13,606 nt of DNA from Candidatus Uhrbacteria bacterium (GCA_016186045.1 JACPMJ010000018.1:1-13606); one strand, 5' to 3'; shown: positions 2,748-7,004, counted from the stretch's first letter. Notes: generated by a model not told the origin, from the sequence alone. Numbers and translations: made by a program.

Positions 2748-3497
2748 ATGAAAAATAATCTTCTTAGTTGGCTTCTTTCAACAGGCCTTGATGAGCAACG
2801 AGCATCCCTTTATTTGACAGCATTAACAAAGGGCGAATCCACTGCATCTGAGCTTGCAAAAACAATGTCTTTAGGAAGAACGGCAGTCTATGACAATCTT
2901 CGGGTTCTTCAAAAACGTGGCTACATGAATGTTATTCAAAATGGGAAACGTCATGTATTTATCCCCATTCATCCAAAGGAACTCTACAAAAAATTTGATA
3001 GCCAGCGCCAACAACTTAAAGATTTGCTCCCCGATTTTTTAGCACTCTATTCAGAAAGTGGCTCACAGCCTTTTGTACAGCTTTTTCAGGGACCCTATGC
3101 CGCGCGTGAAGTATATGAGGACATATTTACAACAACAAAAAGCGGATATTCATATTTTTCACCACCTCAGCTCACTCTACAGGTCATTGATCGCTCATAC
3201 ATAGAACAATGGGTAAAAAAAAGAGTAACAAAGGGCATCACAAGTCGGTCGTTACGCGTGAAAGCGCAGAATATCGTTGGAGAACCGGTCTTCAATAAGG
3301 AATCCGAGTATCTGCGCCAGATCCGCTATCTTCCATCGTATGTTGACTTGAAAGCATCAATCTATATCTATGAAAAGAATATCGGGGTCATTTCCACAAT
3401 TAAAGAAGGGACTGCTTTTATCATTCACTCAGCAGATCTTTCATTTAGTCTTCTTCAAATTTTTAATTTTCTATGGAGTATCAGTAAGGATTCTTGA
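2748..3497 (+). CDS. TrmB-family winged-HTH transcriptional regulator (paralog 1)
   Basis: N-terminal GLDEQRASLYLTALTKGESTASELAKTMSLGRTAVYDNLRVLQKRGYM matches the TrmB wHTH signature (E.A.VY..LL..G..TASE.A..S...R..VY..L..L...G). The C-terminal ~130 aa are shared with the paralog at 6228..7004. Start moved from TTG 2730 to ATG 2748. Stop is TGA. Confidence 0.75.
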   Translation: MKNNLLSWLLSTGLDEQRASLYLTALTKGESTASELAKTMSLGRTAVYDNLRVLQKRGYMNVIQNGKRHVFIPIHPKELYKKFDSQRQQLKDLLPDFLALYSESGSQPFVQLFQGPYAAREVYEDIFTTTKSGYSYFSPPQLTLQVIDRSYIEQWVKKRVTKGITSRSLRVKAQNIVGEPVFNKESEYLRQIRYLPSYVDLKASIYIYEKNIGVISTIKEGTAFIIHSADLSFSLLQIFNFLWSISKDS

Positions 3498-3521
3498 GCG
3501 CTGAAAAAAACTGCATTCCAT

Positions 3522-3573
3522 AAAAGCATCTTCGTACCCGCCATCAGACTGTCTAAAAAAGGAGGTGTTTTTG
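3522..3573 (+). terminator. Intrinsic terminator, family copy B (AAAAGCATCTTC-26-nt loop insert-GGAGGTG TTTTTG)
   Basis: Same conserved stem halves as copy A with a larger loop insert. T-tract 3568-3572. Confidence 0.6.
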
Positions 3574-3574
3574 T

Positions 3575-3602
3575 TTGACAGCGAAAAAAGCTATGATATA
3601 CT
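3575..3602 (+). promoter_or_regulatory. Sigma70-like promoter for the ATPase gene: TTGACA-N16-TATACT
   Basis: TTGACA at 3575-3580, abutting the terminator T-tract. TATACT at 3597-3602. ATG 3639 lies 37 nt downstream with no SD. Confidence 0.5.
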
Positions 3603-3638
3603 GAATATGTGAATATTTAACATTTGATATTAAATTTT

Positions 3639-4839
3639 ATGACATCCTTAAAACCACGCGCGATTGCACAAACAATACATAGAGCGATGCGTACATTTCC
3701 GGCAATTGTTCTTACCGGTCCTCGCCAGTCAGGAAAAACAACCCTTCTCAAAAAACTTTTTGCAAAAACACATACGTTTCTTTCTCTCGAAGATCCTGAT
3801 ATTCGAACGCTGGCGCGAGATGATCCCCGCGCATTTCTTGAACGATATACTGCGCCGCTTATCCTTGATGAGATCCAGTATGTTCCCGATTTGCTTTCGT
3901 ATATAAAATCAGCGATTGACGAAAATAGAAAACCGGGCCAATGGATCATCTCTGGATCTCAAAACTTTCTCCTTATGAAAGGAGTCACCCAATCGCTTGC
4001 AGGGCGAGCGGCAGTATTTACACTGCTTCCATTCTCATATGCAGAACAGGCGGGACGTGGTAGTAGCATGAAAACCCCGACACAATGGATGCGAGAGCTC
4101 TCGAGGAATATCTCCCCAAAAAAAACGCGCGCCGAATCTCGGCATATTGATGAATGGATTTTACGCGGTAATTATCCCGAAATCGCTTCGAATAAAAAAG
4201 TGGATCGAAAAGTTTGGTGCGCATCATATATAGCAACCTACCTTGAACGTGATGTGCGAAATCTTACTGCCGTTGGGGATCTGAATCAATTTGATCGGTT
4301 CCTCACGCTTTGCGCAACGCGGACTGGACAATTATTAAATTATTCTGACATCGCTCGAGATATCGGTATTTCAGTACCTACGGTATCTTCTCTATCCGTA
4401 TTACAAAAACATCGGCAAACGACTCATAAAAGCACCAAAGTTGTATTTCACTGATACTGCGCTTGCAAGTTATCTTTTCGGCATCTATGATCGCGAAACG
4501 TTACTAGGTAGTCCTCATTTCGGAAATCTTTTTGAAACAGCGATTGTCAATGAATTTGTAAAACGGTTTACGCATTTTGGCGAAAAACCGCCGCTCTATT
4601 TTTTACGCACACTCACAAAAGACGAGGTGGATATCGCTCTTGAATGTGCAACAAAACTCTCATTATTCGAAATAAAAAGCAGTGCAACAATAGCCCCAAA
4701 GCATGCCGAAGTTCTTAAGCGATTCATTACCGCTTTGCCACACTCATCAATTTCTCGCGCATATCTCATTTCGCGCTCACTACACCGTGCAACACTTTCT
4801 GAAAATATTCTTCTCAAACACTGGATAGACATCACATAA
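3639..4839 (+). pseudogene. AAA+ ATPase of the COG1373 / DUF4143 family, interrupted by one apparent frameshift near 4390-4400
   Basis: Walker A LTGPRQSGKTTLL, Walker B ILDEIQYVPDL. Frame 0 carries ...IARDIGISVPTV... to 4454. Frame +1 carries ...NIGKRLIKAPKLYFTDTALASYLFGI... (the family motif KxPKxYFxDtGL) from about 4399 and continues to 4839. Summed length ~400 aa equals the family norm. Confidence 0.65.
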
Positions 4840-4865
4840 TTGATGCCCTTCACTGTTTACCCCAT

Positions 4866-5140: not shown

Positions 5141-5190
5141 GATTAGGTTCTAACGGAAAAGTTTTTTGGTCTCTTCAAACATAGATTATC

Positions 5191-5354
5191 GGGAGGAGTG
5201 CGGAGAGGTCTCCTTTCTTGGACATCCGCACTCCTCCCATGGTCGGCAGTACCATTCGCGCATCCTCTCGCTGGTGGTTGGTGCGAGAGGCCACTTCTGG
5301 ACTGCCGTGACTTTATCCAACGCAGGTTTTCTCAATTCTTCCGCGGAGAAAACC
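5191..5354. other. Cluster of three perfect inverted repeats (14-bp, 8-bp and 9-bp stems), none followed by a T-tract; candidate structured RNA / regulatory 3' region
   Basis: GGGAGGAGTGCGGA (5191-5204) pairs with TCCGCACTCCTCCC (5225-5238). CCTCTCGC (5264-5271) pairs with GCGAGAGG (5283-5290). GGTTTTCTC (5325-5333) pairs with GAGAAAACC (5346-5354). Confidence 0.4.
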
Positions 5355-5373
5355 TGCAAACGACGCTTTTCAT

Positions 5374-5991
5374 TCATACCCTCGGATCGTTATCGCCAAT
5401 GCGCCAGTCCGACCATTCAAGTTTCATCGACATCTCGATATCAAGTCCTCTTTCGAGAAGCAGATCAGTGATGTCGGTTCTCCCATAGGCTCTACTGGAT
5501 GTTACGAATCTGCCGTTTTGGCCTGGTTTCGGATAGATGGTGTATGAAACGACATAGAGTCGTTCGTCTTCCCACTCGAAAACATTGTCAAAAAAATAGT
5601 TCCACTCCTGGTGAGTCTTCCTGAATTCTTCGCCATCATCATCGATGCCGCCGAGAATCCACATTCCGCGAGGGGAGTAATTATTTTGGAGCCACACGCC
5701 GGCTCCATTACATCCTGATCCAACCACCAGAAGGTCGGGCCGATTGGGATCGTTGCAATCCCCAAATCTTACGGCTCCCCTTTCCCTATCAATAACCACG
5801 GGGATGATCGCATCCACGTTAATCGGAAGTGCAAAAACGTTATGCAGTGTTTTTTCACGGAACTGCATCAAATAGCCCCAGCAGCAAAAAGACGTCCCAA
5901 CCCATATCATCTGCGCATGCTCTAATGTAACCGCCGCGGTCACACTCTGGGAAGAGATATTGGGGAGTTGCAATTCGTCGAGACTTCTCAT
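5374..5991 (-). CDS. Hypothetical protein (205 aa), no family recognised
   Basis: Strong SD (AAGGAAGG-N5-ATG) at 5991. Globular-looking composition. Divergent from TrmB-like paralog 2. Confidence 0.6.
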   Translation of the reverse strand: MRSLDELQLPNISSQSVTAAVTLEHAQMIWVGTSFCCWGYLMQFREKTLHNVFALPINVDAIIPVVIDRERGAVRFGDCNDPNRPDLLVVGSGCNGAGVWLQNNYSPRGMWILGGIDDDGEEFRKTHQEWNYFFDNVFEWEDERLYVVSYTIYPKPGQNGRFVTSSRAYGRTDITDLLLERGLDIEMSMKLEWSDWRIGDNDPRV

Positions 5992-6182
5992 GATTCCTTC
6001 CTTTCAAGGAACGCGGCGCTCAAGCGATCCGACATTTGCCGGAGTGAATGACCAAAAGCCATCCACGCACCCTACAAAAAATATGATACCAAACTGACAT
6101 TTTTATGTTTTAAATATGTTACATAAAATTTAATTAAACGAGATAGTAGTCCATTTATGTCTATATTATAATACAAAATAAC

Positions 6183-6211
6183 TTGACACGATTAATAATA
6201 TGTTGTAATAT
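6183..6211 (+). promoter_or_regulatory. Sigma70-like promoter TTGACA-N17-TAATAT for TrmB-like paralog 2
   Basis: TTGACA at 6183-6188, which is the ORF-track TTG start. TAATAT at 6206-6211. ATG 6228 lies about 10 nt after the predicted TSS, with no SD. Confidence 0.55.
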
Positions 6212-6227
6212 AGATACTACAGAATAT

Positions 6228-7004
6228 ATGATTTCTCAACTGAAACCCATCCTTAAGCAACTCGATCTCAATACCAATGACACAAAGGTTTTTTTGGCGG
6301 CTTTTGAATTGGATTACGCGCCTGCTTCGGAAATCGCCAAGCGGGCACATTTGAACAGAATTACCGCCTATGAGGCGCTCAAACGCCTCGTGAAGAAAGG
6401 TTTAGTACGATCAAGGGTGCTAAAGGGGAGTGGTGTAAAGTATTTTGAAGTTGAGGATATCGGAATTCTGCAAAATGCTCTGAACGAAAAGAAAGTGTCT
6501 GTTGAGCATGCACTTTCTGATATCCAAACACTTGCCGCACAACTCCGCGCAAAGTATACGGGACGTTCGGAAAAGCCGGTTGTACTTTTCTACGAAGGGC
6601 GAAGTGGAATAAAAAACATCCTCTTGGACACGCTCCATCAACAACCAAAAGAGATCCTCTCATTCGCGTCTGCCGATTTTCTTGAGTTGGGATATGATTT
6701 TCATTTTTTGGAAAGATATTGGAAACAGCGCGTTGAATATAAAATTCCCTCCCGTGGCATCATCCCAAAAACTGACTGTGCCGTATCGCTTTTTACTCCC
6801 GAACGCAATGTACGCGAATTACGACAGATACATTTTGTCGATCCGAGAGGATATATGTTTAAAAATGAAATTGATATTTACGGCGATACTGTTTCAATCA
6901 TATCCCTCGTGAAGGGAAATGAGCATGGCGTCATTTTGCGAAGTCGCAGTATCGCAGAAGGATTGCGATCTATTTTTGAATTGGTATGGAACACAAATTG
7001 CTAA
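6228..7004 (+). CDS. TrmB-family winged-HTH transcriptional regulator (paralog 2)
   Basis: LDLNTNDTKVFLAAFELDYAPASEIAKRAHLNRITAYEALKRLVKKGLV is the wHTH. The C-terminal domain is collinear with paralog 1 (V.LF.G...FS...RV...I.SR...LRQI...IY...VSI...W). Start moved to ATG 6228. Confidence 0.75.
   Translation: MISQLKPILKQLDLNTNDTKVFLAAFELDYAPASEIAKRAHLNRITAYEALKRLVKKGLVRSRVLKGSGVKYFEVEDIGILQNALNEKKVSVEHALSDIQTLAAQLRAKYTGRSEKPVVLFYEGRSGIKNILLDTLHQQPKEILSFASADFLELGYDFHFLERYWKQRVEYKIPSRGIIPKTDCAVSLFTPERNVRELRQIHFVDPRGYMFKNEIDIYGDTVSIISLVKGNEHGVILRSRSIAEGLRSIFELVWNTNC

Follow-up and report, generated by a model that had tools for sequence, protein, structure and literature searches.

Two ancient TrmB-family paralogs with TrmBL2-type architecture in a Candidatus Uhrbacteria contig, each with a candidate auto-operator at its own start

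We analyzed two genes for TrmB-family transcription regulators in a metagenome-assembled genome of Candidatus Uhrbacteria, a member of the Patescibacteria or candidate phyla radiation (CPR). Both lie on the plus strand of a complete contig of 13,606 bp, which is the whole stretch of DNA studied here (the window). TrmB-1 (2748-3497) corresponds to NCBI HYW94_03040 and TrmB-2 (6228-7004) to HYW94_03060, and our translations are identical to the deposited proteins. We conclude from sequence comparison that the two are probably ancient CPR paralogs sharing the architecture of archaeal TrmBL2, each of which would repress its own gene by binding to a palindrome at that gene's start. An initial annotation had read the same region as two acquired modules, in each of which a regulator with a ligand-sensing C-terminal domain controls a divergently transcribed cargo gene on the minus strand, a homolog of the major vault protein (MVP) in the case of TrmB-1 and a 205-amino-acid hypothetical protein in the case of TrmB-2. 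For the reasons given below, we consider this reading unlikely.

The paralogy of the two proteins, as first proposed, was confirmed at every level that we compared. Both matched the Pfam TrmB family (PF01978) well above its cut-off of 25.6 bits (TrmB-1, 40.1 bits, E 3.4e-10; TrmB-2, 37.7 bits, E 1.8e-9), which bears out the TrmB-type winged helix-turn-helix (wHTH). They aligned over their full lengths with 25% identity (BLASTP E 5e-13), their C-terminal ~150 residues aligned when taken alone (E 6e-9), so that these domains are indeed collinear and homologous, and the family profiles of the TrmB-1 and TrmB-2 groups matched over 251 columns at 99.9% (hhalign E 6e-32). A hidden Markov model search of the isolated C-terminal domains, which the initial annotation had suggested as a check, found no Pfam or NCBIfam match even at E up to 10, the Pfam effector-domain model PF11495 included; the comparison of family profiles confirmed that the two domains are related, and their identification came from fold comparison alone.

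TrmB-1 consists of a wHTH (residues 1-73), a coiled-coil helix (76-102) and an alpha/beta domain resembling phospholipase D (PLD; 109-246), and TrmB-2 has the same three-part architecture. An AlphaFold2 model of TrmB-1, made with a 24-sequence alignment as input (mean predicted local distance difference test score 82.5), was compared with the PDB by Foldseek. The best match was TrmBL2 (5bqt, full length, E 3e-15), followed by TrmB (3qph, E 4e-11) and, after the TrmB-family structures, by PLD-fold proteins. The C-terminal domain of the model aligned with the TrmB sugar-binding domain 2f5t over 142 columns (root-mean-square deviation 3.8 Å, E 2.5e-6), a match that covers the first, PLD-like subdomain of the TrmB effector domain. 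Moreover, the TrmB-1 family profile aligned with TrmB 3qph over about residues 9-148 (E 1.2e-7), extending through the coiled-coil helix. In this alignment, Y48-D49 of TrmB-1, which are invariant in the 24 sequences, fall on the YD pair at TrmB residues 50-51, and Y48-E49 are invariant at the corresponding place in the TrmB-2 group. Tyr50 and Asp51 of Pyrococcus furiosus TrmB are important for DNA binding (PMC4158304).

TrmB and TrmBL1 bind sugar through an extra C-terminal subdomain that TrmBL2 does not have (PMC4877046). TrmB-1 (249 amino acids) and TrmB-2 (258 amino acids) stop directly after the PLD-like domain, compared with 338-342 amino acids for TrmB, and the sugar-binding subdomain is absent from both. 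Because of these fold matches, and because the proteins terminate where TrmBL2 ends, we assign the C-terminal domain, originally described as being of unknown function, to the PLD-like type of archaeal TrmB/TrmBL2, and we predict for both proteins a TrmBL2-type architecture of wHTH, dimerization helix and single C-terminal domain. The suggestion that this domain senses sugars as in TrmB is not supported, since the proteins end, like TrmBL2, before the subdomain concerned.

Homologs of TrmB-1 number more than 200 and occur in several CPR classes, with 60-83% identity among the matches listed. TrmB-2 has 90 homologs, its orthologs in Uhr-, Pace-, Lipton- and Gracilibacteria being 41-86% identical, and orthologs of the regulators taken together occur in Uhr-, Kerfeld-, Doudna-, Nomura-, Pace-, Lipton- and Gracilibacteria. 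Such orthologs across the Patescibacteria, at 41-86% identity, imply that the two genes are old inherited paralogs and not freshly acquired modules, contrary to what the repeated arrangement had first suggested. Judged by their sequences, they would be ancient members of a Patescibacteria/CPR branch of the TrmB family whose duplication is old, not recent, and both look like inherited core genes. This branch appears to be uncharacterized, because a full-text literature search found no article mentioning TrmB together with CPR or Patescibacteria. A related Uhrbacteria contig (L034; ~80% protein identity) carries three TrmB paralogs on one strand within 6 kb (1801-7336), in a different gene order and with wholly different small genes in between. 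The divergent genes upstream of the three all differ, and none has a Pfam match. The third paralog (6584-7336) is of another TrmB subfamily, and the TrmB-1 ortholog (82% identical) faces a different gene, of 174 amino acids.

We next considered the DNA upstream of each regulator, using 33 TrmB-1 genome loci, the 110 TrmB loci fetched first and about 120 related loci overall; position weight matrices (PWMs) for the two sites were scanned against 853 kb of CPR DNA, in which ~12 kb was sampled per genome. Binding-site prediction in the two divergent intergenic regions, as the initial annotation had advised, gave one candidate palindrome in each, located at the promoter of the regulator and not at that of the cargo gene. 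The candidate auto-operator of TrmB-1, GTAGTCAAAAATAATTGACA (2716-2735, plus strand), is a site of ~20 bp with the pattern TCGTCAA-N6-TTGACA. It contains the perfect core palindrome GTCAA-N6-TTGAC (2719-2734) and lies 12 nt before the TrmB-1 ATG. The corresponding 20-mer, TTCGTCAA-N6-TTGACA, was found upstream of the TrmB-1 ortholog in 30/33 genome loci, at a distance from the ATG of 0-13 nt in 27 of them and of 31, 100 and 107 nt in L018, L013 and L014, respectively, and many orthologs show arm mismatches (GTCAA..TTGAA, TTCC-GACA). The TrmB-1 operator scores 23.9 bits and is the sole site of at least 8 bits on the contig. At a threshold of 16 bits, the 853 kb contain 3 sites besides those belonging to orthologs, and shuffled loci contain none.

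In loci L002-L032 another palindrome, TTGCTWA-N1-3-TTAGCAA (GGCTTATTTAAGCC-like), is conserved ~35-45 nt before the TrmB-1 operator, and in many TrmB-1 orthologs it overlaps the putative -35 element. It also occurs upstream of TrmB-2 and further paralogs and is absent from this contig. Possibly it is bound by another regulator that these genes have in common.

The candidate auto-operator of TrmB-2, TGTTGTAATATAGATACTACA (6201-6221, plus strand), follows the pattern TGTWGTA-N7-TACWACA, ends 6 nt before the ATG and overlaps the -10 element of the candidate TrmB-2 promoter (6183-6211, plus strand). This promoter consists of TTGACA (6183-6188), a 17-nt spacer and TAATAT (6206-6211), with 10/12 consensus matches. 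L034 and L038 have the same TTGACA-17-TAATAT arrangement at their orthologs, whose counterparts in L059 and L060 have TTGACA-17-TATAAT. Thus, the TTGACA hexamers noted earlier at the start of each regulator gene are both present, but they are not equivalent: that at 6183 is a plausible -35 element, whereas that at 2730-2735 is the right arm of the TrmB-1 palindrome. The TrmB-2 palindrome is kept before orthologs, perfectly so in L034 (TGTAGTA..TACTACA) and L044 (TGTTGTA..TACAACA); changes in its arms are symmetric among orthologs, so that the palindrome is preserved, and in one sub-clade TGTTGAT-N4-ATCAACA has taken its place. The TrmB-2 operator scores 30.8 bits, is likewise the sole site of at least 8 bits on the contig, and its PWM finds sites in the fetched loci almost only at orthologs. 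The sequence ATGTTGTA(A/T)TA is common to the left half of this operator and to positions 12798-12818 of the window.

In the fetched loci, which hold ~100 TrmB-family genes, the type of palindrome follows the sequence of the recognition helix, and the two co-vary across at least six subfamilies. Helix GRTAVYDNLR goes with the palindrome TCGTCAA-N6-TTGACA, NRITAYEALKRL with TGTWGTA-N7-TACWACA, NRASVYDILRRL with TGTTGAT-N4-ATCAACA, NRITTYEILKRL with CTGTAAA..TTTACAAC, KRPTTYVILE with TTGTCAA..TTGACA, and QRTFVYDIL with TGTCGTA..TGATACAAT. This covariation of half-site and recognition helix leads us to predict autorepression. An autorepressor model also fits because characterized TrmB proteins bind promoter palindromes; the known sites in this family are palindromic and lie at a promoter or transcription start, and Tgr has been proposed to regulate its own gene (PMC4158304).

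The palindromes might alternatively act as RNA, either as 5'-leader hairpins or as translation signals. They lie between the likely -10 element and the ATG and so are probably transcribed, and both regulators lack a Shine-Dalgarno sequence, while adjoining genes have strong ones. However, the hairpins are marginal when folded (-4.3 kcal/mol, z -1.6, for TrmB-1 and -2.3 kcal/mol, z +0.5, for TrmB-2) and no better than those of shuffled sequences, the arm mismatches in orthologs would break the 5-bp stem, and covariation with the recognition helix is not predicted for an element that works only as RNA. We rejected the hairpin reading on energetics and regard any RNA role as highly improbable.

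In the autorepression model, each regulator would bind as a dimer to the ~20-bp palindrome that spans its own core promoter and short leader, and binding would repress transcription of the regulator gene, which would be monocistronic and end at an intrinsic terminator. The MVP-like gene and the 205-amino-acid orphan would then be lineage-specific occupants of the upstream divergent slot rather than conserved partners. That the encoded protein is the binder of the palindrome, that binding is repressive and where transcription starts are each inferred from sequence. Such a layout, with a dimeric wHTH protein, a palindrome over its own promoter in a compact divergent region and a monocistronic regulator gene, is like that of MarR-type repressors. 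The protein family and the C-terminal domain differ from MarR, and, unlike in classic MarR/target pairs, the divergent partner of TrmB-1 is not conserved.

A conserved terminator had been described after each regulator gene. Hairpins are present at both places on the plus strand, with the common arms ...CATCTYC / GGAGGTGTTTTT and with A and U tracts. That after TrmB-2 (7046-7078) is an intrinsic terminator with a 14-bp stem and a U-tract (-17.9 kcal/mol, z -5.5) and is 93% identical to a copy after tRNA-His (716-756). The terminator-like hairpin after TrmB-1 (3520-3574), with its CATCTTC...GGAGGTG stem and 27-nt loop, is weaker (-15.8 kcal/mol, z -1.1). This type of terminator is not specific to the regulators, since it also follows tRNA-His (721-753) and an ATPase pseudogene (4864-4924), where the best copies are found. 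The wider module, CCCCAT(G/A)AAAACATCTCC-loop-GGAGGTGTTTTTGT, occurs at 716-756, 3518-3576, 4858-4926 and 7041-7081, and also at L034:7358-7399. Its 3' arm is the perfect Shine-Dalgarno-like GGAGGTG, its 5' arm is anti-Shine-Dalgarno-like, and its loops range from 5 to 33 nt.

Both minus-strand neighbors described at first do exist, and AT-rich gaps of 180-236 bp separate them from the regulators. TrmB-1 is separated from the MVP-like gene by 180 bp if the longest open reading frame (ORF) of the latter is taken (start 2567), or by 231 bp from its annotated start (819-2516, minus strand); TrmB-2 is separated from the 205-amino-acid gene (5374-5991, minus strand) by 236 bp. The GC content of positions 2501-3000 is 33%. 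Two divergently placed regulators on one contig would be unremarkable in themselves, but the bias is real across the family: a divergent neighbor was found for 73/83 TrmB genes compared to a background of 44% (p = 1e-16), with gaps clustering at 150-200 bp. The layout is shared by all groups (TrmB-1, 25/30; TrmB-2, 15/17; other paralogs, 33/36). The neighborhood survey upheld the divergent layout as a family-wide trait. The proposed control of the cargo gene failed for both pairs for want of a conserved neighborhood, as follows.

The MVP-like protein, which is annotated as 565 amino acids with a ribosome-binding site (AAAGGAAGGG) ahead of its start at 2516, matches the Pfam domains MVP_shoulder (3e-22), Vault_3 (1e-9) and Band_7 (5e-7). 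Its homologs comprise 55 proteins at 46-81% identity, besides the contig's own protein and one marginal match. None of the 110 TrmB loci, with fetched flanks of up to 6 kb, contained a homolog of MVP or of the 205-amino-acid protein. Accordingly for TrmB-1, MVP was absent from the flanks of all 33 genome loci, and it was also absent from L034. When all proteins of the contig were compared with all fetched loci by tblastn, the only cargo homolog adjacent to a TrmB gene was MVP in L111, a distant genome (GCA_900089805.1) in which TrmB-1 is 63% and MVP 52% identical to the proteins here. From the side of MVP, TrmB-1 is the divergent neighbor in 2/11 loci (this contig and L111), and 9/11 have no TrmB neighbor. 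In 7/11 (L113-L116 and L118-L120) MVP is adjoined by PNP_UDP_1, a gene of the nucleoside-phosphorylase family, and rpsP, trmD or a radical-SAM gene recurs near MVP loci. That the MVP/TrmB-1 pair recurs in two distant genomes could mean that the two genes were linked long ago, or that the slot is permissive and has received insertions more than once. The MVP loci L114-L116 share a conserved palindromic element (..GCAGATGCATAAGC..) ~70 nt upstream of the MVP start. TrmB-1 never has a consistent divergent partner: its neighbors are heterogeneous, and all-against-all BLASTP and phmmer comparisons of the flanking genes revealed no conserved neighbor, the real clusters having at most 3 members. The largest cluster was rejected as a shadow ORF.

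The 205-amino-acid gene, preceded by the ribosome-binding site AAGGAAGG, has no better claim to be a conserved partner. Its product has no Pfam or NCBIfam match and is nearly an orphan: a comparison with 1.8 billion representatives gave only 29 weak relatives (best E 2.8e-8), and it is 28% identical to a 231-amino-acid protein. Among the other TrmB-2 orthologs with a callable upstream neighbor, 0/16 have this gene beside them, so that the link proposed at first is not a conserved one. We rejected a 227-amino-acid divergent neighbor in L034 as its diverged homolog (BLASTP E 0.004 over 50 residues). Downstream of the gene, a conserved non-coding element (5209-5366) recurs at L034:369-480 and 915-1028 with 81-86% identity; after its core, ATTCGCGCATCCTCTYGCTGGYGGT..GCGAGAGGCCACTTCTGG, comes a perfect hairpin of 12 bp, GCAGGTTTTCTC/GAGAAAACCTGC. 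A 63-codon ORF that overlaps the stop of the 205-amino-acid gene (ATGA) was rejected as a coupled gene and is taken as a conserved non-coding repeat because its L034 counterpart has an in-frame stop. An Rfam search of 4840-5400 gave sub-threshold noise only.

These results bear directly on whether the regulators are dedicated to their neighbors. On the contig, no second operator copy was found near the cargo promoters for either regulator, even at a lax threshold (lone TGTTGTA heptamers at 2542 and 12806 were taken as chance). In either intergenic region one site alone is conserved, with no weaker copy, at the regulator's own promoter or start and ~150-200 nt from the cargo start codon; this is the distance of the TrmB-1 site from the MVP start. 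Because the partners are not conserved and the operators have no second copy, dedicated control of MVP or of the 205-amino-acid gene is not supported by the sequences compared. The earlier claims of MVP under dedicated control and of intergenic sites governing the cargo are therefore dropped, and the standing of both regulators as core orthologs likewise argues against their being mobile cargo.

Other members of the family do have recurrent divergent partners. LivJ-like substrate-binding proteins were found 13 times (L071, L075, L076, L081, L087, L092, L093, L096 and L056), 12 times beside other paralogs, mostly of the NRITTYEILKRL subfamily, and once beside the TrmB-2 ortholog in L056. Five decarboxylases of fold type III, dependent on pyridoxal phosphate (PLP; LysA/ODC-like, below the NCBIfam equivalog cut-offs), lie divergent to non-Uhrbacteria TrmB-2 orthologs (L040, L041, L052, L059 and L060). 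These partner genes hint at amino-acid or polyamine-related regulons in other CPR lineages, and comparison with them suggests that TrmB-2 has lost its decarboxylase partner in this Uhrbacteria lineage. In two loci, L081 and L096, a related half-site, read by eye, appears to abut the putative -35 element of the binding-protein gene. TrmB-family members are probably able to regulate a divergent gene.

Several of these observations weigh against autorepression as the whole explanation. A divergent-neighbor bias with gaps of 150-200 bp is usual for local regulators of the adjoining gene. If the two cases arose independently, chance is an unlikely explanation for the pairing of MVP with TrmB-1 in L111. 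Two TrmB subfamilies carry recurrent partners, so the regulators may also control the divergent gene here. The TrmB-1 promoter is ambiguous on this contig, where either of two TATAAT sequences (2699-2704 or 2736-2741) could be the -10 element, the latter implying a leaderless mRNA. Start-proximal inverted repeats were more frequent before TrmB genes (61/101) than before control genes (134/489; p = 6e-10), but the rate in controls is high (27%), so this test is weak by itself. Finally, the case for autoregulation is comparative throughout.

TrmB-1 could also be a global, possibly nucleoid-associated equivalent of TrmBL2, present in abundance and coating or repressing numerous loci, its own palindrome being no more than its site of highest affinity. 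TrmBL2 (P. furiosus PF0496, Thermococcus kodakarensis TK0471; 5bqt, 5box, 5bpd) is the best match of TrmB-1 in fold and in sequence (phmmer 2.7e-5), has the same three-part architecture of wHTH, dimerization helix and one C-terminal domain without the sugar subdomain, and is of similar length (264 amino acids). In Thermococcales, no other TrmB member is as conserved as TrmBL2, and none but TrmBL2 is universal (PMC4877046). The conservation of TrmB-1 across CPR classes is unusually high, a feature it shares with TrmBL2 within its clade, and its lack of a conserved gene neighborhood would suit a global role. The host, however, is a CPR bacterium and not an archaeon, and identity is ~17-18%. Furthermore, TrmBL2 is largely non-specific and forms filaments, whereas the CPR genes carry sharply defined, subfamily-specific palindromes, which a non-specific binder would not need and which argue for sequence-specific binding; hardly any further high-scoring sites occur in the 853 kb sampled. 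We therefore find a global role improbable. TrmB, TrmBL1 and Tgr of Thermococcales (3qph, 2f5t) share with the CPR proteins the PF01978 wHTH with its Tyr-Asp pair in the recognition helix, and their coiled-coil and first effector subdomain are alignable. They differ in that the CPR proteins are ~90 residues shorter, without the sugar-binding subdomain, and in that the CPR contig has no sugar-transport or glycolytic genes nearby.

The remainder of the window is a mixture of genes. tRNA-His (648-721) and a tmRNA gene (13205-13554, minus strand, 103.6 bits) lie near opposite ends of the contig, with ~12.5 kb between them. tRNA and tmRNA genes are classic integration targets. The make-up of this interval, in which orphan genes, repeats, a pseudogene and a toxin-antitoxin pair are interspersed with the core regulators, suggests a variable region. 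An ATPase gene (AAA_14 and DUF4143; 3624-4839) is broken into overlapping ORFs at 3624-4454 and 4441-4839 and is likely either a pseudogene with a frameshift or a product of misassembly. Positions 7145-7641 hold a ParE/HigB-like toxin-antitoxin pair, after which come several hypothetical genes and RtcB (9848-11068). Two elements resembling miniature inverted-repeat transposable elements (4950-5113 and 8522-8707) have the inverted-repeat ends GAGRSCGTTGCAAAAC...GTTTTGCAACGKTCTC, the first of them holding the hairpin repeat ATTCCCGCGAAGGCGGGAAT; they look like small mobile or repeated intergenic elements. Two minus-strand genes, of 324 and 168 amino acids, have duplicate upstream regions (12167-12235 and 12805-12874, 81-88% identical), each with a strong hairpin (CTATCAGAGGTGTTTTT.../...AAAAACGTTTCTGATAG) and a promoter-like segment. 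Within the 324-amino-acid hypothetical gene, positions 11500-12000 reach 63% GC compared to ~45% for the contig, and the C-terminal half of its product is of low complexity and rich in Ser and Arg.

The biology of this contig is thus probably ordinary, with two autoregulated transcription factors among variable genes, and the tempting idea of a dedicated TrmB switch for a rare bacterial MVP homolog is removed as unsupported. A wider and rather doubtful possibility is that TrmB proteins of TrmBL2 architecture are the main radiating transcription-factor family of the CPR, with a readable code relating helix to half-site and a cognate auto-operator for each of at least six subfamilies, in which TrmB-1, given its 60-83% identity throughout the CPR, would be a universal master or nucleoid-type regulator of these minimal genomes and the upstream slot a landing place for new genes such as MVP. 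The analysis yields testable predictions in the operator sequences of two conserved regulators and in the pairing of recognition helix and half-site across subfamilies, and it points to LivJ-like binding proteins and a PLP-dependent decarboxylase as candidate local targets in sister subfamilies.

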